This document shows positions 1-48,270 of a stretch of DNA of 64,000 nucleotides, in pieces. Origin of the DNA: a virus. Where the stretch lies: positions 111,956-175,955 of IMG/VR virus record IMGVR_UViG_3300045988_175607; one strand, written 5' to 3'. Below the pieces are notes generated by a model that had not been told where the DNA came from, did no database searches, and was given only the letters and a program-made list of their open reading frames with translations. The translations under genes were made by a program, and so were the position numbers. Within the stretch, counting starts at the first letter, position 1, and each line of letters opens with the position of its first letter.

Positions 1-385
1 AGAGAATTGATATTACTGTGTTTTGGTTTTGAAAAAACTTTGGGACAGGAAGTTGCTCAGGTAAAACGTTTTTTCAAATTTCAAAAAAAATTTTTCCTGA
101 AAATGTACCCCACCTTTTCTTCTCTCAGCTTTCATCAGATAAACACTCATGAACCTTACGGACTTTTTATCTGAGGAACGCGCAACCCTCCAACCCCAGC
201 CCCCATACAGAACAATCTTGTTCATCGTTGACGGCCTTAATTTCAATCAATTTAGACCAACAGAGAAAAATCATTTCATCCGCCGCGGCTTTCTCAACTC
301 AAGCCACATCCTGAAACTCTTGCATTCGCGGCGCTTGCCATCAAACTCACCAACAGCAAATAGAAATAAAGAAAAATAAAAAAAA

Positions 386-415
386 TTTGACAAATTTAAA
401 AAAATACTGTATAAT
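386..415 (+). promoter_or_regulatory. sigma-A type promoter in the non-coding leader (TTGACA-N17/18-TATAAT); no ORF downstream
   Basis: TTGACA at 386-391 and TATAAT about 410-415 with an A-rich upstream tract; no ORF over 60 aa in the next ~1.2 kb. Confidence 0.5.
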
Positions 416-1365
416 ATAATTAATCTATTAAGGAAATATTATTTAATGTACTCTTTTTTATACAAACTAAATTCTTTTCTTAAATTAATATTTGATTTTC
501 TTTTAGTAATTCACTTTGCTTTGACATTACAATAAAGATACAAAATTAAATATTAATTAATACTGGTTTTTGTGACGTTTTTCATTACTCTGTTTTAAAT
601 ACAAAAAAGAAAAAATATTTTTTTCTTTTCTTGACCTCCTTTCTGATGTGGCACAGCAAGCACCACAATATGAGCAAGCTAACCTTGTTAGCAAAGACTT
701 GCATACATACAATTAAATAACTTAGCTTTATTTAATTAACATTCAATCATACTAAATAATATAAATGTTGATGCAGGAAGAGCGCAAGCTTCAAATGCAG
801 CAACAATCTGAGGGGAAGACTTTTATTAAAACAAGTAGGGGGAAAGAGATTATAGCAATTACAATTGTTTGTTTGTTGCACTCGGTGCAACAAACAAAGC
901 TATTCTCTCTTCTGCGGTTCTGACACTAAGTAATGCAGTGGCATTAACGCACTGCTTAATATATTCTGTTTGGCGTGAACCAAGAAAGGCCTTTCCGTAT
1001 TCTTTCTCTCTTGGTTTTATTCCAACAGACAAAAAAGTAAAATGAAAACCGTTTTCCTGTTCTTTAATAGTTATTCATCTTTCATTTCCTTTCTTTAAGC
1101 GATTAATTGCGCGAGCAACCCTTACACTGAGCATTAATAATACAACATCTGCGGCAATCGCTCGCTCTAAGCCGCCGCGGCAATGTCCTCCTTGATAGAT
1201 ACTACTCTGTTACTGTAGCACAGCTTGCTAACCTTGCACAAAGGCTTGTTAAGCTGTGCTATTGTTGTATAGAAGGAATAGTATAGTTACGTTGTTCAGC
1301 GCTGCGTGCGCGGTTGGCACGCAGCGACCTTATGTCAAGCATTTGTTTTGGCAAATTTTTGATAA

Positions 1366-1680
1366 TTTTTTATCATTTGTGATAAAACATTATCAATCCT
1401 GAAATTGGACAAACATTGTTAATTTTTTAACAGAGTTAAAATGCTGTAAATGATTTACAGCTTGTTAAAAAAATAACGAATGGTATTCGGTTTCTTATTG
1501 GGAAACGAGTTTCCGCCGCGGAAACTGAGATTGTTAATTAACTATCAATTCATCAATGCTTGTTAATATTTTATCACAAGCACAAGCGATTGTTAAAAAA
1601 TTATCACTAATGATAAATAACTATCATACATGTTAAAACTTTATCATACATGTTAAAACTTTATCATACTTATAAGATAA
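1366..1680. repeat. Array of TTATCA-containing (DnaA-box-like) repeats, including a 20-bp tandem duplication
   Basis: At least 9 TTATCA motifs (ttatcatttgtgataaaa, attatcaatcc, ttatcacaag, ttatcactaa, tttatcataca x2, tttatcatact); ttatcatacatgttaaaact repeated tandemly at 1622-1641 and 1642-1661. Confidence 0.55.
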
Positions 1681-1694
1681 AAAAAATGGGGCTT

Positions 1695-2012
1695 TTAGCC
1701 CCAAACTTGTACATAATCCACGGTCAACGCATACACTACAAGGAAATTGTGGTCATCCAAATAACTAAATTCCATACAAGTCGGCTGTCCGTAATGGTCG
1801 CGGTTCAAAACGTCAATCGTCTCATTCAGCGCGTGCGCCTCTCCCTTGGCAATTTCTTCTTTCGTCTCAGCATACATCCGCTCGAATAGCTTAATGCCCT
1901 CTGCAACGTCTCTGCTTACTGCAAGCACCCTTTGAGCTTTGCCGGAGCGTTCCTCAGTAATAACCGCGCAAGTATCCATCCAAAACCTTTTTTCCATTTT
2001 TATTAACCTCAT
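1695..2012 (-). CDS. hypothetical protein (105 aa), the only minus-strand early ORF
   Basis: ORF ending in TAA with an RBS-like aggag upstream on the minus strand; no recognizable motif. Confidence 0.4.
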   Translation of the reverse strand: MRLIKMEKRFWMDTCAVITEERSGKAQRVLAVSRDVAEGIKLFERMYAETKEEIAKGEAHALNETIDVLNRDHYGQPTCMEFSYLDDHNFLVVYALTVDYVQVWG

Positions 2013-2458: not shown

Positions 2459-2838
2459 ACTTAATCACTTTAGCACATTAAAGCGTTAACGCGCTAACGC
2501 GCCTTAGCGCGAAACTGGGCAAACATTGTTAATAAATTGCCAATTCTGCGATAGCCGCACCCCATTCCAGTATACCACACTTGCGCAAGCTTGGCAATAC
2601 CTTTGTGTAAAAAAAAGTTGCTAAAATTAGCAACTTTTTTATTCTTTGGGAAGCGACTTACTGATTCCTTGAGCCTCGATTCGTTGGGCCTTACTGCTCT
2701 TTTGGAGACTTACTGCCTGAACCCCTGCACGGTGTCTACTGACCGCGCTCCCTTGGAACAATTATAGTATACACCAAAGGGGATAAAATGTCAACACTTT
2801 TTTTGAAAAAACTTTTTTTATTTTTTTTGAAAAAGGTA

Positions 2839-3174: not shown

Positions 3175-3200
3175 AGGGTGCAAACCCTTTTCTTTTTTTT
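3175..3200 (+). terminator. rho-independent terminator
   Basis: aagggtgcaaaccctt hairpin plus T-run. Confidence 0.55.
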
Positions 3201-3312
3201 CTGCGCTACTTTAGCACATTAAAGTGATAATGCTTTAGCGTAATAAAGTGCCCAATCCCGAAATGGCGCAAACCTCGTTAAAAACTTAACAAGCTTTTTC
3301 AAAAATTCCTTA

Positions 3313-3887: not shown

Positions 3888-3920
3888 GGCTTGAAAAATA
3901 AAAACAAGAATTGAATTAAA

Positions 3921-3957
3921 AGGCTGTAAGTAATTTACAGCCAATTTTTTTTATATA
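3921..3957 (+). terminator. rho-independent terminator
   Basis: ggctgtaagtaatttacagcc hairpin plus aatttttttt. Confidence 0.6.
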
Positions 3958-4012
3958 TGGCCTTGACTTTGTTGGCGGCCTGTGCGCGATTGGCACAGGC
4001 CGAGCTTTGTGT

Positions 4013-4103
4013 CAAGCATTTTTTGGTGAAAATTTTGATAATTTTTTATCATTTGTGATAAAAAATTATCAATCCTGAAACCCCCATTGTTAAAAAATTA
4101 TCG
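4013..4103. repeat. ~90-bp regulatory repeat, second copy of 1333-1435 (GC hairpin, TGTCAAGCATTTT, TTGATAATTTTTTATCATTTGTGATAAAA palindrome)
   Basis: About 85% identity to 1333-1435; contains the TGATAA/TTATCA palindrome. Confidence 0.6.
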
Positions 4104-5624: not shown

Positions 5625-5993
5625 ATGACTAAGAAAGAACTTTTTACCGCCCTGTTGAACATCCCCGCAGTTAAGGCACGTCCCGACTTTGTAGAGAGTT
5701 TGGAACATGAAATTGACCTGCTGAATCGTAAGAACAGTTCATCACGCAAGCCCACGCCCCATCAGGAAGAAGGCGAAGAAATAATTACCCGTGTGATTGA
5801 AATACTGAACGATGGCAAGGGGCGCACAGTCACCGAAATTCTCAAGGTGCTGAACATGGCAGAGTTGAGTCATTCTCGCTTGAACCAGCTTATTAAGAAG
5901 GCCAAGGACGCGGGCACGATTGAGCGTGAAGAAGTCAAGCGCAAAGCGTACTTTTTCGCCGCAGGTGTTGAGCGCAAGCCGATTGAAGATTAA
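5625..5993 (+). CDS. winged-helix-like small protein, paralog of 8342-8716
   Basis: MTKKELFTALLN...EHEIDLLNRKN...SHSRLNQLIKK shared with the 8342 product; leader aaaaccagaaagtgagttgatactatg duplicated. Confidence 0.55.
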   Translation: MTKKELFTALLNIPAVKARPDFVESLEHEIDLLNRKNSSSRKPTPHQEEGEEIITRVIEILNDGKGRTVTEILKVLNMAELSHSRLNQLIKKAKDAGTIEREEVKRKAYFFAAGVERKPIED

Positions 5994-6418: not shown

Positions 6419-6768
6419 AATTTATTACATGAATTGTTACGAATTTGTAATAATTTGAGTTGAAAACCTTGATAATAATTCTTATTTTATTAAAAAAAGC
6501 ATGATTTTTTATAAAAACAAGGCGGTTTTTGATAATTTTTATTGATTTTTTATAAAAAATCATAATTTTTTTAATAAAACTTTGAGAATTTGTATCAATT
6601 TCTTATAATTGTTACAATTTTGTAACAATTTTGTAATAAATTTACCCCTTGACTTTTGGCGCGCCGGTTAGGAATGTAACCGGCGCGATTTTTGTCAATA
6701 TAGAATCTCTGGTAATTTTTTAACAAAAGATTGTGAAAATTTAGACAATAATTTTTTTCCTAAAAGTA

Positions 6769-8047: not shown

Positions 8048-8244
8048 AGAAAATAAGTAACATGGTTTTCAAGGGAAAGTTTGTAAAAAACTTTCTCTTG
8101 ACTTTTTCAGCTCGCCGCTGTCAATCCACAGCGGCGAGAATTTGTCAAGAGGCAATGTTTGTGAATTTTTTATCACAAAAGTATGATAAAAAATTCACAG
8201 ACTAATTTTCCCGATTGTTAAAAAAATAACTTTTCAAAAAGGTA

Positions 8245-9806: not shown

Positions 9807-9948
9807 AAAAAAGGCTTGACATTTGAGCTCGCCGGTCTCTATTGAGGCCGGCGAGAGTTTGTCAAGAGGAAATGTTTGTGAATTTTTTATCGCAAAAGTA
9901 TGATAAAAAAATAACGAATCAATTTTCCCGATTTCTTGAAAAAAAGTG

Positions 9949-11610: not shown

Positions 11611-12304
11611 CCCCCTATTTTTTTCAGCTGGTCGCCCTTGGCCATGGCGACCAGAATTTCAGTTTAATTAAGACTTGTAAATTTTTTTCTGCGCAAGTGT
11701 GGTTCAAGTGCCCTAACTAAAAAATCCTGTAATTAAGTCTTGGCGTCCCGGAGCCGGTTGTTAGGCTCCGGTATTTCCCCCGTGAACCCCATATGGCGAT
11801 TTTTTGCTCAATCCAGCGGCCCTGCCCATATGCGCCTGTTCTCCCGAAAAACCTGGGGCGCGCAAGCGCAGCCCCAAATAAAAAATCATATGTTTTTGAT
11901 CCCGCCCCGGCACTACCCAACCTTTTTATTCCTTTTGATTTTTTATAAAAAATATGTTATAATATTAAAAAAAAAGTAAAAATTCCAAAAGGAAACAAAA
12001 TAAAAATTTTGTCAAACCGCGCGCAACCATCCTGTGCGCCACCATCGCACAGTTTATTTTTATAAAAATATATTGTATAATAATATCATAATCAAAAAGG
12101 GAAAAAGGAGAATGCGGCAAGAGTATTAAAAGGTTGGTTCTATATCCAGTTTGCCTATCCTTTTGATTTGCTCCAAGTTTTTAATGCTCCAGTTATAACT
12201 TGCCGCCTCGGCAACTTTGTTAATGAAAATGGTTGGTTTTTATTAGCACTGTGCGGAATGTTGTAGAAGGCGTAATGCCTTCTACAATTTGTCCCGCCAC
12301 GGCA

Positions 12305-13033
12305 TTAGTTTTCTTTTAAAATGGCTTTAAGCTTTTCACGATATGATTCTAAGTATGTTATAAATATTTGGAATCGAGTTGTACGTGCAATGATATGGCC
12401 AGTTTTTTCAAGGAAACGTCTAATACAACTTCTAAAAGACAAATAATCATGTTCATCAGCTTGCATTAATCCAAAAAATTCTTCTGGACTCATTTCACCT
12501 TGATATACTGCATCAGCTAATAATGCAGCTTTTTTAATTATATCAGGACTGCGCGAATAGAAATCTGTAATAATTTGGTCAAATAAAATTACCTCATCTC
12601 CAGTCATAAGACGATAATGATCATAATCATCAAGTTTAATGCCCCAAATATAATCACGACTACCTATTTCACCATAGCTATCATCATCTTTAGTTATACC
12701 AAACAATTTAACTAAAATCTTTGATATTATTCTTTTAGCAGTCCTTTCACTGGTAAAGTAATTCTAAAGCATAAATAAACGTGCCATGCCGCTTATAGTT
12801 CCAAGACTATCATTCTCTTTGGCACAACGCAACACTTCATCAATAATTAATAATTCAGTTCTTGCATCGAAGTTTCTTTCATAAGTATCTTGGTATATTT
12901 CATTTATAATAACGCCACCATAAACTTTCTCATATTCGCAAAAATGAGAAAGCTTTTCATAGAATTTTACTGATGAATTTCTAAAATGACCGAACGACAC
13001 ACCAAACCAAGCAGCCAATTCTTGAGTTTTCAT
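12305..13033 (-). CDS. HTH-containing protein (243 codons), possible replication-initiator-like; one in-frame TAG at 12764-12766 fuses two ORF-track fragments
   Basis: 12764-13033 and 12305-12706 are in one frame across TAG (…ARLFML-TAG-NYFTSERTAKRIISKILVKLFGITKDD…); N-terminus MKTQELAAWFGVS is HTH-like. Confidence 0.5.
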
Positions 13034-13344
13034 TTTTCCCAGCTATAATTTCATAACATAAACATCCTCCTTTCTTTTAAGAGTCAAGAAAAAGTTGTAA
13101 TATTTTTTGGCACATCTATATGTCTTATAGAGAGGCCATTTTTCATTACAACTCTGACAAGATAATTAAACTTGTCATATCTTTCTACTTTATATAAAAA
13201 AAATATTTAATCTGTTTTATCATTCTTGCCCAAAGAAGCATAAAAAAAATGTGGGCCAAGCCCACGGAAATATGATATTTTTTTGACACGGTATGTTCCT
13301 TTCTTCCGGTGTAAAAAAAGGAACAACTATCACAAATGTTTTGT

Positions 13345-13440
13345 TCTGTTTCAAAATGAGAATTTTAAGATGAGATTTTCATTTCATTTTTTGAAATGAG
13401 TTTTCAATTTTAAATTGAGTTTTTGAAATCAAATTTTGGT
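13345..13440. repeat. iteron-like direct repeats (AAATGAGWTTTT x4-5)
   Basis: aaatgagaattttaagatgagattttcatttcattttttgaaatgagttttcaattttaaattgagtttttgaaatc. Confidence 0.45.
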
Positions 13441-13794
13441 TTTCTTTTTCATTATATATATAATAACATATTTTTATCAAATTGTAAAATAAAATATATA
13501 TGTTAATTTAAAGCGGAAACGGTTACGATAAAAAGAATGTGACCCTGAACGCGCGGTCGGCCACCACTCTTCCCCAATTCTAACATTTCTTTTTACTTCA
13601 CTCTACGCTCGTCAATTTTGTAACTATGTTTGTGATATCTAAGAATTTTAATTCCAATCTACAAAATTCAAGCTCTATAACCCCAACTCCACAATCTATT
13701 GTCAAAAAGATTGTCCTACCAGCTATTTTATCAAAACTCAAGCGCTTTATACTTACGTACAAAGCGCCCCTACATTACAATCAATTTTGAATAA

Positions 13795-13838
13795 AACACC
13801 TGCATTTCAAAAGTGTGTGAAAATTGCAGGTGTTTATA
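13795..13838. repeat. inverted repeat AACACCTGCA...GAAAATTGCAGGTGTT; its right arm recurs at 14700-14716
   Basis: aacacctgcatttcaaaagtgtgtgaaaattgcaggtgtt; acts as a terminator-like hairpin for the minus-strand gene. Confidence 0.5.
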
Positions 13839-13885
13839 TAAACTAATTGGACTTTATAGAATTTTATCCTACAAAACTCTACTTT

Positions 13886-14626
13886 TTAATCCTCAAACAC
13901 TAGCTCATCTATCAATTGCGTTCTCTTTTCTGGGAAGAATCCCAACTCTTCCGTTACCAACATCACAAACACATTATAATTATCTTCAGTTGACATAGTT
14001 GAATAACGCAAAGCCTCTTCTCGCTCAACCTTATTAATCTCGCCCTTGTGATAAGCATCATCAATTACAGCAATGCGCTCACTTTGTTCTCCATAAGCCT
14101 TTTCCGCACACTCTCTAATAATCTTCCTCGAATCCGCATCAAGAATATCAGTGCCTTCTTTATTCATCCAAACATACTAACTTCTGCCGCATTCACCATA
14201 ATCATTCTCAATATAATTTCTACCATAAGATTTACGTTTCCATATTCCAACATAAGAACAAACAGTCTTCTCAGAAACTTGTGCGCTTACTTCATTATTT
14301 TTACTATAAATACTTCTACCAACTCTTGTACCAGTATCAATCTTGGCTTTTCCCGCAGGAGTCAACCTATTGTTTTTATCTCTTACATTACCCCACTCTT
14401 TTGGAGCTTCTTTTTCAATCAACTCATAAGCTTTAGAATAAACAGGAATCTTAACTTTATCAATAATAATTCTTGATTTATCATAATGCCAATCTGCAAA
14501 TCCACTCAAAATTTTCATTTTTTTTTCTTTAACACTTGCACGACTTTTACCTAATGTATCTGGTTTTAACCCAAACCATGAAGATAATTCTTTTAAAGAA
14601 ATATAACCTTCTTTAAGTTCAATCAC
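13886..14626 (-). CDS. hypothetical protein (246 codons); in-frame TAG at 14177-14179 fuses ORF-track fragments 14177-14626 and 13886-14167
   Basis: …ENDYGECGRS-TAG-MVWMNKEGTDILD… continuous in one frame. Confidence 0.5.
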
Positions 14627-14646
14627 ATTAACTTTTCTCCTTTACT

Positions 14647-14717
14647 AAAATCTACTTTTAAATAAACACCTGCGATTTTTCAGCTATATTATATATAAGA
14701 GTGAAAATTGCAGGTGT
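14647..14717. repeat. inverted repeat AAACACCTGCGATTTTT...GAAAATTGCAGGTGTT (second copy of the 13795 element) enclosing a promoter-like loop
   Basis: The identical 16-nt arm gaaaattgcaggtgtt occurs at both ends of the two-gene cassette 13886-14626. Confidence 0.5.
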
Positions 14718-14864
14718 TCTATTAAAATGATAGGATAATGTAGGACTTCGTCCTACATTTATATATAAAATTTAATTAAAAATCACTACTCAATTTTGTC
14801 CAAAAATTTGTGCGGCAAAGCCGCACAATGTCCGCAACTTTACTTTGCGGACTAACGTCCGCAA

Positions 14865-14910
14865 CTTTACTTTTTTATATTTTTATTATATAATATATAT
14901 AGAAAAAATA
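14865..14910 (+). promoter_or_regulatory. conserved phage promoter motif (TATAAT-ATATATAGAAAA family)
   Basis: ttttttatatttttattatataatatatatagaaaaaataag; preceded by GTCCGCAACTTTACT direct repeats (14832-14870). Confidence 0.5.
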
Positions 14911-14933
14911 AGAAAAGGAGGTTTGCGCACTTT

Positions 14934-15374
14934 GTGCGCAAAACTACTATGAATATTAATGATTACCTTCTGACTTCCCTGCGCGATGGTCAGTCTGCTG
15001 AAGACCTCGCTAAGGATCTTTCTGCTGCCCTACAAGTCGCTGAAAAGCAAATTACCGAAGAAAAGCGCCTTTGCGAGCAAAGCTCGCAGCTTAAAACTGA
15101 CCTGTGCGATTGCCTGCGTAAGTATGTGGGTGCTGCGCACCCGCAGACTTACGATAAGCTTGTAGATGTCCACGGCAAAGACTTCACCAATGATGAAATC
15201 ATTGAAATAGTTGATAACACCATAAAAAATACCTCACTTGCGCTTAAGCTTTACGAAAGTATTGCCGATTTTTGCGGCGAAGCCGCAACCACACCAAAGA
15301 CTTGCAGTGAAGAGGCCACGACCACAAATTGGGAAAAGCTTTTTGGCGATTTCTTTAATAAGTATAATTTATAA
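14934..15374 (+). CDS. hypothetical acidic protein (146 aa), GTG start
   Basis: GTG 10 nt after aaaggagg; a stable hairpin tttgcgcactttgtgcgcaaa overlaps the start. Confidence 0.5.
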   Translation: MRKTTMNINDYLLTSLRDGQSAEDLAKDLSAALQVAEKQITEEKRLCEQSSQLKTDLCDCLRKYVGAAHPQTYDKLVDVHGKDFTNDEIIEIVDNTIKNTSLALKLYESIADFCGEAATTPKTCSEEATTTNWEKLFGDFFNKYNL

Positions 15375-15432
15375 AAGCTTTAATTTGTAAAAGCGCAGCT
15401 TTTACAAATTAAAATTAAAATTTTAAATAAAA

Positions 15433-15476
15433 AGAGAAGTTATAAATCTATTATAACTTCTCTTTTTTTATTATAT
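15433..15476 (+). terminator. rho-independent terminator (second of two tandem hairpins after 15374)
   Basis: agagaagttataaatctattataacttctct plus ttttttt; preceded by the ttaatttgtaaaagc/gcttttacaaattaa hairpin. Confidence 0.7.
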
Positions 15477-15614
15477 CCTTTGGGGCGACAGCCCCAAAGC
15501 GACGGGATGTTTTATAATTGTTCAAACGCAGTTTGAACAATTAACTAAAACTCACGGCGACAAAATACCATTATAATTAACATTATCATTATCATTATAA
15601 TTATCATTGTGCTT

Positions 15615-15860
15615 GTAAATACTTGTACAAGCTTGTTACAAACATTTCTCCCTCGCCTAATTAAAAAAGCTTGTATTTTTAATTAAAAAAGCTTGTATAC
15701 AAGCCCACTTTCCTTGTACAAAAATTTTAATTAAAAAAGCTTGTACAATTTTATTATTTTCATCTATAATCAAAAATAAAATTCAGCTTTCTTGCGCTCG
15801 ATTTCTGCTTGCTTACCAATTTCAACTTTGGTACCAACTTGTACAAAATTTGTACAAGCA
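15615..15860. repeat. cluster of TTGTACAA palindromes (at least 6) and three AATTAAAAAAGCTTGTA direct repeats
   Basis: cttgtacaagcttg, gcttgtatacaagcc, ccttgtacaaaaa, gcttgtacaatttt, acttgtacaaaatttgtacaagc; ttaattaaaaaagcttgta x3. Confidence 0.55.
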
Positions 15861-16300
15861 TTTTCCTTGTGGGGCGTTGCCCCACTATTCTCACTAAGCA
15901 ATTCCGCAAATTCTTCTCTAATTGTGCGCAATCTATACGAAACTGCTTGCTGCGAAATCCCCAGCTTTACACCAATCTCTTTCTGCGACAATCCTTGATT
16001 ATATAAAGCCGCAATTTCCGCAAGCCTATTTTCAACTTTTTTCTTTTGTCTACTGGATTCAAGCTTTGCATTATATTTTTCTACATTAACATCATTAACA
16101 GCTTTTAAAGTAGTCAACATCGCATCAATCATAGGATTATCACTACTTATCTAATCCGTCAACACTAACTCTATAGCCGATTCTGCAAGCTCTCCCGCCA
16201 AAATTGGATCACTCATATGAACTTTCTTAATCATATCCAATAAACTATTATATATAACCCCTGAACGCCTTGCCGCCGCATCATTAAACTTCTCTATCAT
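15770..16300 (-). CDS. sigma-70 family (ECF-like) sigma factor with one in-frame TAG (~16147-16149)
   Basis: 16298-16300 ATG (MIEKFNDAAARR…LVLTD-TAG-ISSDNPMIDAML…) is in frame with ORF-track 15770-16132; C-terminal region-4 HTH LSQKEIGVKLGISQQAVSYRLRTIREEF. Confidence 0.6.
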
Positions 16301-16490
16301 CTGAATAATCCTCTAACAAACGTTCAATAGCAAAACATATTACTTTTGATCTATTGGACATTTGCGTTTCTTTACAAAATCCATCCAAAAGCTATAATAA
16401 ATCACTTGGAATAGTAAAAGTAACTCTTGAGTTTGCGCTTTTTCTTTCTTTCAACTCTTGGAGCAATTGCGTTTTCATACTTTTTTGCAT
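16284..16490 (-). CDS. ribbon-helix-helix (CopG/Arc family) DNA-binding protein with in-frame TAG at 16392-16394
   Basis: MQKSMKTQLLQELKERKSANSRVTFTIPSDLL-TAG-LLDGFCKETQMSNRSKVICFAIERLLEDYSDDREV; a full RHH fold only if TAG is read through. Confidence 0.55.
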
Positions 16491-16628
16491 ACTACCTTTC
16501 ATATTTTTCGTATGACTAAATTATACCATAAAAAGTATGAAAATGCAAATTTTTTAATACTTGACTTTCTTCAAAAAATATCTTATAATATATTTATAAA
16601 AAATAATAAAGGACTTACAAATTGTACA

Positions 16629-16928
16629 ATGACTGAACTTTATAATTTTAGTTTTGAATTCTGCGCCGAAGGCGCAGAAAGCTCCACAAAAGAAAATACT
16701 CCGCCCCTCCTCTGTAATGGCATAGTTGCGGGAGCTGACTACGCGGACGCAGTAGCCAATATTGTCGGAACGTTCCGCTCCGACAAAAACAAAATCTCTA
16801 AACTCCTTGTCGAAGAAGTAGGCTCTTCCGCAGTCTTGATTGGCAACCCCAAACCAATTAAAGAGCTTTACTCTAACCCCGAAAAAGAAGAAGAACAAGT
16901 TAGTAATGAAACTGCTAACAACGAATAA
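16629..16928 (+). CDS. hypothetical acidic protein (~99 aa)
   Basis: ATG 16629 downstream of a conserved promoter motif; the ORF-track start at 16458 is unlikely. Confidence 0.4.
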   Translation: MTELYNFSFEFCAEGAESSTKENTPPLLCNGIVAGADYADAVANIVGTFRSDKNKISKLLVEEVGSSAVLIGNPKPIKELYSNPEKEEEQVSNETANNE

Positions 16929-16930
16929 AA

Positions 16931-16967
16931 TAAAAGGGAAACATATAGTTTCCCTTTTATTTTTTAT
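16931..16967 (+). terminator. rho-independent terminator
   Basis: aaagggaaacatatagtttccctttt plus T-run. Confidence 0.6.
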
Positions 16968-17174
16968 AAAAAATATACTATAATATATATATAAAGAAAA
17001 GAAAAAAGAAGAAAGGCTTGCGGAATGAAATTCCGCAAAGAAGTGATAAATGTGAAAAGCAATCCAATTCTCACTGCAATAACTAAACTCACCTTGCGCC
17101 ACTACCGCAACCTTCGCCGCAAACCTATAAACCGCACACCATGTTCACTTTAACTATCTCTTGGAGGAACCTTA

Positions 17175-17588
17175 ATGATTAACTTTTATCACAAAGAAAC
17201 CGCCGCAACCACCTTCGCTAACCTTACACCTGGTGACATTTTCCGCAAGCCCGATTCTGAAAAAGGTTTTTGTTATCTAAAAACCTGTACAGGTGATGCA
17301 ATAAACCTTATTACTGGTTATTGCTTCTACTGGAATCCAGAAGATAAAGTAATTCCAATCCCTAATACTATTCCTTATACAAATAGTCTTACAGGTAATT
17401 TCAAAGCCTATTTTGATAATATTAGTCTTGGAGAAACTTTTACTATTGACAACACTTATGCTAGTTTTTATATAAAAACTCCCATAAGCGAAAATAAAGA
17501 AAATGCCATCAATCTTGTTACTGGTGAAGCTTGCCATTTTGATAGTAAACAATCTGTTAAAATTTTGCACATAGATATAGAGGACTAA
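17175..17588 (+). CDS. hypothetical protein, tandem paralog of 17591-18013 (shared GETFTIDN motif)
   Basis: Both products ~138 aa with conserved ...GETFTIDN...Y.K core. Confidence 0.5.
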   Translation: MINFYHKETAATTFANLTPGDIFRKPDSEKGFCYLKTCTGDAINLITGYCFYWNPEDKVIPIPNTIPYTNSLTGNFKAYFDNISLGETFTIDNTYASFYIKTPISENKENAINLVTGEACHFDSKQSVKILHIDIED

Positions 17589-17590
17589 AT

Positions 17591-18013
17591 ATGATTACCT
17601 TTGTTACCAAAAACCCTCCTAAACAAGTTCAAATCTCTGAGCTTAATACAACCGCCATTTTTGTAGAACCTTACTTCACAAAAAACCTTTATTACATGAA
17701 ATTAGGATATGCCGATTTCATTAATCTCGCAAATGGTTACTACGGCACTTGGGATCCTGACGTTCTTGTAACTCCAATAGACGCAAATTGTCCTATTGAC
17801 ATTTTTGTCAATAAAACCGCAGACCGCACTCGTTTTTCTGACATAGACTATGGTGAAACTTTTACTATTGACAATGCGGCATTTCAAAGCTACTATATGA
17901 AAATTGACACAAACATACCAAATTATAACGCTGTCAATTTTATCACTGGTAAATTGTGTTTCTTTGAATCAAACCAGCCCATTCAAATTGCGGCAATCTT
18001 TTATGAGGTGTGA
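17591..18013 (+). CDS. hypothetical protein, tandem paralog of 17175-17588
   Basis: See 17175-17588. Confidence 0.5.
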   Translation: MITFVTKNPPKQVQISELNTTAIFVEPYFTKNLYYMKLGYADFINLANGYYGTWDPDVLVTPIDANCPIDIFVNKTADRTRFSDIDYGETFTIDNAAFQSYYMKIDTNIPNYNAVNFITGKLCFFESNQPIQIAAIFYEV

Positions 18014-18019
18014 GCTTAC

Positions 18020-18214
18020 ATGGAATTTTCAAAAATAACTGATTTCTTTTACTACCATGGTATAACATACCTTAAAATAAAACCGACCCATATTTACGAA
18101 CGTGAAACCAATGCAATATTTATGGCTAATGCCATAAATCTCAAAACTCGCAAACCTGAATTTTTTGCGGATGATGAAATCGTAAACCCCGTAAACCTCA
18201 CATTTACACTATAA
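18020..18214 (+). CDS. hypothetical small protein (64 aa)
   Basis: ORF with RBS-like gaggtgtgagc upstream. Confidence 0.35.
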   Translation: MEFSKITDFFYYHGITYLKIKPTHIYERETNAIFMANAINLKTRKPEFFADDEIVNPVNLTFTL

Positions 18215-18229
18215 AAAAGGAGCTACACT

Positions 18230-18481
18230 ATGAAATCTTTTATCTACACTGCTAAATATATTCTTAAAACCATAGATGACGAATACAAGGAATACTGCGA
18301 CCATGGTATAGTCGTAGGTGACAGTTATGCCGAAGCTATGTCTCAACTCGAAAAATTTTATGATCCAGAAGATCTCTATGAACTTAAAATTGTGTCGCTT
18401 CGCGATGACGGCATAACTCTCCTCCCTAATCTTCCCGATGTAGATCTTGAAAGCGCAATAGTTGCGGAAAACATTTGTTGA
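18230..18481 (+). CDS. hypothetical small protein (83 aa)
   Basis: ATG after aaaaggagctacact. Confidence 0.45.
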   Translation: MKSFIYTAKYILKTIDDEYKEYCDHGIVVGDSYAEAMSQLEKFYDPEDLYELKIVSLRDDGITLLPNLPDVDLESAIVAENIC

Positions 18482-18500
18482 AAGTGAGCAAAACTCACTT

Positions 18501-19112
18501 TCAACAACTTCCAAAAGAAGAAAGTAGCTTAACACCTCGTATTGTTGCAGGTATCAAAAAGCAACCTAATACATTACCAACTGCGGCAATCAATAGCGCA
18601 AATAACATTTTCGTAGTAGCCTGCGCTGTAAGTGCGCTAATCCAAAAGTAGAAAGAGTAAGCTATTGAATGTGTGAACCCCGCAACTAAAAACGCAAACA
18701 CATACATAATTGTCTCAAGCGCAGTTTCAGCTTTAACGCCCGCATAAACCAACACGCCGCAAAATATGCTGCGCACAAACACACTTAATAATTCCTCAAC
18801 TTGCGCACGCGAAATTGCCAATGCGATTTCCGATGAATCCACATTCCACATAAGTAACGCCGCAAGCGCAACCAAAAAAGTGCCAAGCGCATTAAACGCA
18901 AATATTCTCCCTAATTCTATTGCGGCTTTTGGAGCTTTAACTCTTTCTTCAATCATAAGTCCCGCTTTACCCGTTAGAAGACGCAATCCGAACCTTTTAA
19001 CCATAAGCAAGCCAATAGCAAAAAGAATTAAACCCACATAATTGGGCGCGCACAGACTGGCCACGCACCCTAAGGCTATTACTACCCCCGCTAAAATTTC
19101 AAGCAAATACAT
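18501..19112 (-). CDS. multi-pass membrane protein with an FNT-like GF(T)HSIA motif
   Basis: About 6 TM helices; AGFTHSIAYSF resembles the formate/nitrite transporter GFEHSIAN motif; locally GC-richer and on the opposite strand to its neighbours. Confidence 0.45.
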   Translation of the reverse strand: MYLLEILAGVVIALGCVASLCAPNYVGLILFAIGLLMVKRFGLRLLTGKAGLMIEERVKAPKAAIELGRIFAFNALGTFLVALAALLMWNVDSSEIALAISRAQVEELLSVFVRSIFCGVLVYAGVKAETALETIMYVFAFLVAGFTHSIAYSFYFWISALTAQATTKMLFALLIAAVGNVLGCFLIPATIRGVKLLSSFGSC

Positions 19113-19202
19113 TAATTATTTTTACCCCACAGTAAGTCTTTTAATATATTTATTATAACAAAAAATTTTGTTTCCGTCAAGAAAGAGAAAGGAATACCGA
19201 AA

Positions 19203-19529
19203 ATGATGAAACTAATACCTGCAGAAATGTCCGTGAAGCTTACCCTGCGCAAGCGCAATAAAAAGTTTAATCAAACAAGAAAGGCCGCAATAAGAGCTAT
19301 TAAAAGCGCCGCAAATAACGGAAAATATATTACTCTAACAAACATCCCTGATGATTGGACTGACGAAGAATTTCTCGCCTTTTGGACTTATTTTACTACT
19401 CAGGGTTATGCTCTTAAAGCTCTTGGAGTCGGAAACGATTATTGGACAAATTCTAAAGCGGCCATTAATCAATATCAAAAATATCCATTTAGTAGTATTG
19501 TTATATCATGGGAGCCTAAAAATGTCTGA
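19203..19529 (+). CDS. member 1 of a four-gene tandem paralog family (~100 aa, C-terminal ...(I/V)SW)
   Basis: NNGKYITLTNIPDDWTDEEFLAFWTYFTTQGYAL...ISWEPKNV; compare 19522, 20116, 20406. Confidence 0.5.
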   Translation: MMKLIPAEMSVKLTLRKRNKKFNQTRKAAIRAIKSAANNGKYITLTNIPDDWTDEEFLAFWTYFTTQGYALKALGVGNDYWTNSKAAINQYQKYPFSSIVISWEPKNV

Positions 19530-19833
19530 ACTAATAAATGCTAAAACTGCCGCCGAACGCTCTAAGATTGCACGCGCAAAAGCTTTTGAAAGAGCAAAAT
19601 CTGCCGCAGTAGAAAAAATCAATAACGCAATTCAAAATGGAAATTATAGTATTGTTATTGATTTAATTTCCCCCTGGACTAAAGACGAATTCAAAAATTT
19701 CTGGGACTACTTTGCCGCAAAAGGTTATCATCTCCAGCTAGGCGTTTATACTGATCGTGAAGAAGCTACAGAAAAATATATTAATGAATTTGGCAATTGG
19801 TATCTTACCGTCTCTTGGGGTGATGACTCTTGA
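19522..19833 (+). CDS. member 2 of the -SW paralog family
   Basis: QNGNYSIVIDLISPWTKDEFKNFWDYFAAKGYHL...VSWGDDS; ATG overlaps the previous stop (ATGTCTGA). Confidence 0.5.
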   Translation: MSELINAKTAAERSKIARAKAFERAKSAAVEKINNAIQNGNYSIVIDLISPWTKDEFKNFWDYFAAKGYHLQLGVYTDREEATEKYINEFGNWYLTVSWGDDS

Positions 19834-48079: not shown

Positions 48080-48153
48080 TGCGGGCTGGTGAAATGGTAG
48101 CCACAGCGCTCTCTAAAAGCGCCTTTTTCTGAGTTCAAGTCTCAGGCCCGCCG
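48080..48153 (+). tRNA. suppressor tRNA with CUA anticodon (reads UAG)
   Basis: tGCGGGCTGGTGAAATGGTAGCCACAGCGCTCTCTAAAAGCGCCTTTTTCTGAGTTCAAGTCTCAGGCCCGCCG; anticodon stem GCGCT/AGCGC, loop CUCUAAA, T-arm CTGAG/CTCAG; acceptor pairing imperfect in my hand fold. Confidence 0.6.
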
Positions 48154-48270
48154 CGGTATCATGTAGGGGCCTTTTCGTGGCGATACTATTTAAACTAATT
48201 CTACTAAACTCTCAGTATTTTGCTGAGAGTTTTTTTTTATTAAAAATTTATGATATAATATTTATAGAAA

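Follow-up and report, generated by a model that had tools for sequence, protein, structure and literature searches.

What does a large phage keep in more than a kilobase of DNA that encodes no protein? The question is raised by positions 380-1700 of a 64,000-nucleotide stretch of viral DNA (IMG/VR record IMGVR_UViG_3300045988_175607, positions 111,956 to 175,955), which is called the window in the following and from the first letter of which all positions are counted. An earlier note on the window had described a strong promoter, GC-rich hairpins and an array of repeats in this interval, and had taken it for a candidate replication origin or genome terminus. The interval is non-coding. The explanation favoured here, with a probability of about one half for the explanation as a whole, is that it may serve as a control hub at the junction between a leftward block of sigma-like and structural genes and a rightward block of early cassettes, in a TAG-recoded, SPbeta-like phage of gut Clostridia with a genome of ~176 kb.

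According to this explanation, host RNA polymerase would start at an invariant consensus promoter, P386, and would make an untranslated RNA of ~0.9 kb, with an AT-rich 5' part (~420-630) followed by a folded part (630-1290). The transcription unit would end at a hairpin module at 1300-1339, as between the other early cassettes. Ten dyad-symmetric sites downstream of the module would bind a dimeric, phage-encoded regulator, and the same sites would be bound 5' of other early promoters.

Coding capacity, relatives and promoter

The absence of a credible open reading frame (ORF), claimed before for 380-1690, holds when the whole window is considered: in the 64 kb, no interval free of ORFs of at least 60 amino acids (aa) in the standard code is longer than 380-1649. 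Gene callers leave the homologous 2.1 kb empty in two assemblies (L001 and L002), both identical to the window here. When TAG is read as sense, ORFs of 83-89 aa are present in the gap, and in an alignment of ten relatives they are crossed by indels of 1, 5, 7, 10 and 13 nucleotides (nt). A 29-aa ORF downstream of the promoter (446-535) was rejected as a gene, being frameshifted by a change in a T-run in L003 and L011. The listed 76-aa ORF at 149-379 was rejected as well: substitutions are distributed as 24, 19 and 20 over the three codon positions, with no third-position bias, an internal stop occurs in L048, and GTG replaces ATG in L043 and L050. From the loss of this ORF it follows that the non-coding stretch is larger than the earlier note had stated. 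The plus strand is C-rich across 149-379. When 2,818 ORFs from related loci and from the window were used in a tblastn search for protein remnants, the only matches were self-matches, to the homologous non-coding DNA of L011.

The ten homologous sequences fall into two clades. Members of clade A (the window, L003, L041, L049 and L007) are 92-97% identical, those of clade B (L043, L044, L050, L048 and L011) are ~80% identical to clade A, and over the whole gap the identity between the clades is 77-80%. Clade B has no counterpart of the window from ~1545 on, where the window has six palindromes and a gene for a 100-aa protein; its sequence passes at ATTGTTAAT repeats into DNA that resembles window 2520-2640. 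A profile of four of the sequences, run with nhmmer against 28 loci of more distant relatives, found nothing significant outside the contig of L011. No match to the region was obtained with blastn among 50,697 phage records, and none when IMG/VR was scanned for the 100-aa protein and for the 29-mer palindrome. Loci that came up in a 17-mer scan (L038, L040) and in scans of metagenomes and genomes (L042, L045, L046, L051) were discarded as chance loci. Three short Logan contigs (L004, L005 and L009) all stop at window position 1358, within a block that is duplicated at 3982-4080, which means that the repeat breaks short-read assemblies.

The consensus sigma-A promoter seen in the earlier note is present at 387-415 and is perfect in both hexamers (P386; Table 1). 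Across the relatives checked, clade B included, the identity of the promoter region is 98%; P386 itself is the same in ten related contigs, and the next ~100 nt on the 3' side of the promoter region, with 87-99% identity, are almost invariant in both clades. Of all 200-bp stretches in the 64 kb, the one that contains P386 is the richest in AT (358-557, 14% GC). In a distant relative, L020, a similar promoter directly drives a folD-like gene; accordingly, P386 is read as the first early promoter of the rightward block, with a cargo that is non-coding in the clade studied here. The folD-like gene of L020 (2290-2570, minus strand) carries an in-frame TAG, the position of which presumably corresponds to a hydrophobic residue in FolD proteins. 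A second promoter-like site at 1348-1376 (TTGGCA-17-TATCAT) was dropped, since it is not conserved in clade B.

The folded segment and the module that closes it

The two long hairpins which had drawn attention to the GC-richer DNA behind the AT-rich tract are present, at 868-898 and 1300-1326, and belong to a series that extends over the whole segment (Table 1). As a single sequence, 630-1345 folds with z = -5.9 on the plus and -7.1 on the minus strand; when such single-sequence z values are computed in sliding windows, other palindrome-rich intergenic regions score as strongly, which makes the measure unspecific. For the alignment, RNAalifold gives -109.6 kcal/mol for the plus and -121.4 kcal/mol for the minus strand, with covariation terms of -6.0 and -5.3, respectively. 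When the columns of the alignment are shuffled, 630-1345 has z values of -9.0 (plus) and -9.8 (minus), against about 0 to -2.5 for the flanking controls 30-380 and 416-630. In the plus-strand structure, which was derived from the same sequences as were used for testing it, pairing holds in 98.7% of the cells, and at nine pairs both partners change. Two of these changes lie in the 1300-1326 hairpin (C-G to G-C and C-G to U-A) and several in the hypervariable hairpin at 868-898, while the larger indels between the clades are confined to hairpin loops or tips. The 934-954 hairpin is mis-registered between the clades by MAFFT.

The earlier note had asked whether a non-coding RNA is made from the promoter at 386. 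The comparative structure, with its conserved hairpins and compensatory changes, speaks for such an RNA as a predicted, folded product. The strand is taken from the promoter, since the conserved consensus sequence is on the plus strand only, and plus-strand transcription is what it predicts. In our reading the plus strand also offers a GCAA loop and G-U pairs in the 780-791 hairpin. At the left edge of the segment, ACCTCCTTTCT (634-644) does not vary among the ten relatives and has the same sequence as the anti-Shine-Dalgarno tail of 16S rRNA in Firmicutes; its predicted pairing partner is CAGGAAG/CAGGAGG at 774-780. A search of Rfam 15, with its ROOL, GOLLD, intron and riboswitch families, gave nothing at the gathering score and only chance-level matches with E > 1, up to E 10.

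How the segment would end is suggested by a module that recurs in the early region. Its order is CTTGAC, a GC-rich hairpin of variable sequence, a T-rich spacer, GTCAAG, two or three palindromes and the next promoter, and it is placed between the terminator of one gene and the promoter of the next. In the region under study the hairpin of the module and GTCAAG are found at 1300-1339, with the CTTGAC that belongs to them as far away as 630, so that ~660 nt of folded sequence occupy the place where other modules have ~10 nt. If the module is read as the end of a cassette, then 420-1340 would be the "gene" of the first early cassette. A paralogous hairpin at 3976-4002 has a different stem sequence and the loop GCGATTG. 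There is no paralogue of 420-1290 in the window.

The palindromes and the genome around them

The repeats to the right of the module had been described as TTATCA(C/T)A motifs resembling DnaA boxes. The actual unit is a dyad of 16 bp, TGWTAA-N4-TTAWCA. Perfect dyads occur nine times in the window, where 0.08 are expected; seven of them are at 1360-1666 and two at 4036-4071. When one or two mismatches are allowed, there are ten sites within the 307 bp of 1360-1666. The palindrome block which the earlier note had placed here, and its second copy, are real (1359-1387, with a copy at 3982-4080 that is 86% identical over 100 nt); in terms of whole palindromes, the block 1360-1432 is duplicated at 4036-4103. 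The 20-bp tandem repeat likewise exists, at 1591-1669, where Tandem Repeats Finder (TRF) reports a period of 20 and 4.0 copies.

Further dyads are found at 3276, at 4036, 4056 and 4088, at 6710, at 8160, 8184 and 8216, and at 9877 and 9901. Each of these lies 20-90 bp 5' of an early promoter (3313, ~4100, 6769, ~8250 and 9949). Since dyads thus precede at least five early promoters, they are most likely binding sites of a phage regulator, and among the readings offered by the earlier note it is the operator array that this recurrence supports best. Candidates for the regulator would include the weakly MarR-like product of 5625-5993 and the basic 46-aa peptide encoded immediately to the left of the window. 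Clade B does without most of the array, and therefore a large array is not essential to the conserved core.

The genome to which the window belongs was found in human gut metagenomes in two independent assemblies of 176,020 bp (k = 119) and 176,028 bp (k = 127). After removal of the k-mer overlap both amount to 175,901 bp, from which a circular genome assembly is inferred; the two are assemblies of the same circle with their ends at window ~18.4 kb and 5.04 kb, away from the gap. The gap without called genes is 2.1 kb long and has the sigma-like/YonG/YonD block on its left (minus strand) and the early cassettes on its right (plus strand). To the left, genes carry the Pfam domains YonG_N and YonD_N, both shared with SPbeta. 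The nearest left-hand gene encodes 317 aa and is a sigma factor by annotation in related phages, namely the Enterococcus phages VRE9 as well as phiCD211 and Sundance. This sigma-like gene (L001 12443-13396) carries an in-frame TAG, and a tRNA with anticodon CTA, labelled Pyl by ARAGORN, is encoded at window 48080-48154; taken together, these findings make it probable that some genes, at least, are translated with TAG as a sense codon. To the right, the early cassettes are short, each has its own sigma-A-type promoter, and their products include a deoxyribonucleotidase and a DnaQ-like exonuclease.

Two small genes, of 46 and 100 aa, lie within or beside the gap. The first is a basic ORF missed by the gene callers (L001 ~11988-12130, ending at window position 10), with the sequence MRKPRGILGSYAANMKRK...KPKRGRPKKKKEN and an AT-hook-like GRP core; substitutions between relatives are mostly synonymous, as in a real ORF. 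For the 100-aa protein no Pfam or PHROG family was matched, and the idea that it is a DNA-binding partner of the region was given up, because of the missing family match and, in our own reading, its acidic-rich sequence. Next to its gene, a perfect 23-bp inverted repeat at 2072-2132 holds a pair of divergent promoters, one serving the 100-aa gene and the other a 74-aa gene. An element of the form TTTAGCACATTAAAG(C/T)G...GAAA(C)TGG(G/C)CAAAC(A/C)T(T/C)GTTAA is repeated at 2449-2533 and 3190-3282, downstream of two early genes, and is similar to the CTAAAGCGTTAAAG repeats with which the corresponding gap is filled in the relative L021. Farther to the right, 6430-6600 (15.5% GC) is surpassed in AT content by only one other stretch of the window; it contains a long A/T palindrome and has fold z values of -6 to -9 on both strands. 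The block 11700-19700 has a strongly negative GC skew (down to -0.43) and few long standard-code ORFs, and probably holds minus-strand genes, possibly with TAG codons; at ~20.0 kb there is a second strand switch with an AT-rich promoter region.

Table 1. Coordinates of features in and around the non-coding region (window positions)
Feature	Position	Strand	Details
A-rich upstream tract	364-386	plus	
P386	TTGACA 387-392, TATAAT 410-415	plus	17-nt spacer; 12/12 match to consensus
AT-rich tract 3' of P386	416-629	plus	untranslated; no conserved fold, column-shuffle z ~0
GC-richer folded segment	630-1339	plus	bounded by CTTGAC (630-635) and GTCAAG (1334-1339)
Hairpins, left part	647-667, 711-737, 780-791, 868-898, 934-954		780-791 with GCAA loop; 868-898 hypervariable
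Invariant purine tracts	811-819, 837-849		
Hairpins, right part	978-1016, 1042-1078, 1171-1181, 1215-1262		
Hairpin of the module	1300-1326	plus	10-bp GC-rich stem, loop GCGGTTG; inner part of the module
Dyad, sequence form			TGATAATTTTTTATCA (duplex)
Three perfect palindromes	1360-1375, 1380-1395, 1417-1432		
Terminator-like hairpin	1443-1461		1433-1461 86% identical to terminator region 3913-3941; stretch 1443-1525 conserved in clade B
Degenerate palindrome	1463-1478		two mismatches
Palindrome GTTTCCGCCGCGGAAAC	1509-1525		
Six further palindromes	1532, 1561, 1591, 1611, 1631, 1651		last four exactly 20 bp apart
Intrinsic terminator of the 100-aa gene	1687-1703	minus	right-hand limit of the region
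100-aa gene	1695-2012	minus	convergent with the region; from gene calls
Module copies (starts 3962, 6648, 8097, 9815)	3962-4103, 6648-6725, 8097-8231, 9815-9916		

Candidate roles and comparison with known systems

If the region works as a control hub, the role which we tentatively prefer for it is that of a transcription-activated origin of the type known from lactococcal c2 phages, where RNA would open or prime AT-rich DNA; otherwise, the transcript may act by itself, in a regulatory or a structural capacity. A role as origin is plausible, with three parallels to the c2 type: the region lies between divergent blocks, its strong promoter sits at the AT-richest tract of the window, and the predicted RNA is folded and without translation. 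Invariant purine runs in the predicted RNA plausibly point the same way, as do the unrelated repeat arrays found at the same junction in other phages: CTAAAG-type repeats over ~700 bp in L021, and ATAACAnnTGTTAT palindromes in ~1.2 kb of non-coding DNA in Enterococcus phage VRE9_3. More speculatively, and with low confidence, 420-1340 could encode a large structured non-coding RNA (~0.9 kb) of a new class, specific to a clade of ~175-kb TAG-recoded phages of gut Clostridia. Such an RNA would be made from the first early promoter, would contain an invariant copy of the 16S anti-Shine-Dalgarno tail (ACCUCCUUUCU, 634-644) together with the two purine tracts (811-819 and 837-849), and would act either as an R-loop primer of replication or in trans in host takeover.

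Several observations weigh against the favoured explanation or against parts of it. With regard to the RNA, plain DNA palindromes likewise obtain strong scores in the column-shuffle test (z of -6 to -7 for 1345-1545), and two clades provide only a small number of independent changes. The two strands do not differ in how well they fold, and the counts of G-U versus A-C in shared helices, 11 versus 8 with ten sequences (7 versus 2 with four), do not settle the strand. The folded segment, with ~80% nt identity, diverges faster than the sigma-like gene, with 96% aa identity. There is no U-run directly after the stem of the 1300-1326 hairpin, which makes it a weak terminator. With regard to distribution, relatives with sigma-like proteins 44-68% identical have no homologous region, several relatives lack any large gap at this junction, and six of the ten palindromes are missing from clade B. 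With regard to an origin, the GC skew, the cumulative form of which the earlier note had proposed as a check, follows gene strand over 72 kb and has two local minima, at ~2 kb and ~19.7 kb, and the adjacent genes carry no initiator signature.

Other explanations distribute the weight of the same facts differently. If the palindromes were to bind a phage initiator, as in a lambda-like iteron origin, a phased array would bend or open the DNA, replication would begin close by and the folded segment would be incidental. Ten dyads within 307 bp, of which four have the exact 20-bp spacing of a phased array, would suit this arrangement, and so would an AT-rich tract in the same gap and the unrelated repeat arrays at the same junction in relatives. 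However, the dyads also lie, like operators, 5' of at least five early promoters, clade B lacks the phased part of the array, and no initiator-like gene is adjacent, the 100-aa neighbour being acidic-rich and without Pfam or PHROG match. The AT-richest tract (358-557) is moreover more than 700 bp away from the array; at that distance it would be an uncertain candidate for an unwinding element of the DnaA type. An iteron origin is regarded as quite unlikely, and a cluster of DnaA boxes recruiting the host initiator, which had been the leading idea of the earlier note, as the least probable of all the explanations considered. For DnaA it can be said that TTATCA has five bases in common with TTATCCACA and that the AT-rich tract is nearby, but TTATCCACA has no match with at most one mismatch in 380-1700, the 64-kb window contains such matches at chance level (16 versus 19 expected), and the real unit is a symmetric 16-mer, unlike the asymmetric 9-mer of a DnaA box.

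The region might also be without a function of its own, as the decayed remains of duplicated early cassettes with their terminators, promoters and operators. The early region is indeed made of shuffled, repeated modules, within 1433-1478 there are copies of elements that also occur elsewhere, the divergence of the segment outpaces that of the gene beside it, and the segment is absent from more distant relatives. What speaks against decay is an alternation of invariant blocks with compensating stems, larger indels in loops only, and a promoter that is almost invariant together with its first ~100 nt; nor is there a paralogue of 420-1290 in the window or a trace of protein similarity, and decay ranks below the iteron origin in probability. 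Less probable again is a packaging site or a physical genome terminus. The sigma-like gene is no more than a few kb away from the end of the record in several annotated relatives, and non-coding DNA beside the head of a structural block is a common location of pac or cos sites. On the other hand, none of the genes next to the gap was identified as a terminase gene, and the independent assemblies give the same circle of 175,901 bp with ends elsewhere, at ~18.4 kb and 5.04 kb, so that the terminus proposed earlier finds no support in the assembly ends, which are themselves weak evidence.

Large recoded gut phages of this kind are uncultured. The handles gained here for work on their origins and early regulatory circuits are an operator motif, a modular architecture of early cassettes and a candidate for a transcribed origin or a large non-coding RNA. 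They could allow the master regulator to be identified, a minimal replicon to be defined and c2-like, transcription-primed origins to be tested in much larger phages. If the transcript is a true stand-alone structured RNA, it adds to the few large phage-borne RNAs that are known.

Among known systems, the iterons of lambda-type origins are phased, dyad-symmetric repeats of ~16-19 bp in arrays of four or more, as in the region. In lambda, the iterons are part of the initiator gene, have an AT-rich region beside them and do not occur outside the origin, whereas the dyads described here are spread among promoters and have no adjacent initiator gene. With ROOL and GOLLD RNAs the region shares several hundred nt of folded, untranslated sequence in large phages that have tRNA genes; it matches neither family in Rfam (E up to 10), and its covariation support is much thinner.

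For the distribution of the dyads, the closest described case appears to be that of SPBRE, a 15-bp motif bound by the master repressor MrpR (YopR) of Bacillus phage SPbeta (PMC10516654). As far as SPBRE is described there, both it and the dyads are short conserved motifs that are repeated in intergenic DNA 5' of early promoters in SPbeta-like phages (PMC10516654). The SPBRE sites described are single and at promoters, whereas the region has a cluster of ten sites away from any promoter. The likeness is one of description, and no MrpR-like gene was identified here, where no search was aimed at MrpR homologues.

The closest known analogue of the region as a whole would be the transcribed origin of the lactococcal c2-type phages. 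As described in the part of the literature on Ceduovirus used here, this origin is non-coding and lies between divergent early and late blocks, and replication depends on PE1-T, a transcript from the first early promoter (PMC7150918). PE1-T is not translated, and its length, its sequence or its structure is of importance (PMC7150918). Since blastn found no match to the c2, bIL67 or 923 origin types in the phage collection, the region is an analogue and not a member of this group. It is two to three times longer than a c2-type origin, and it belongs to a 176-kb SPbeta-like phage where the c2 origin belongs to a 22-kb siphovirus. It is also followed by a cluster of regulator sites, of which the part of the c2 account drawn on here makes no mention. 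As far as that account goes, the two have in common their place between divergent early and late blocks and their beginning with the first early promoter, behind which there is neither a ribosome binding site nor an ORF. In both, according to the same account, a sequence type is conserved among the members of one group and bears no relation to the types of other groups (PMC7150918).

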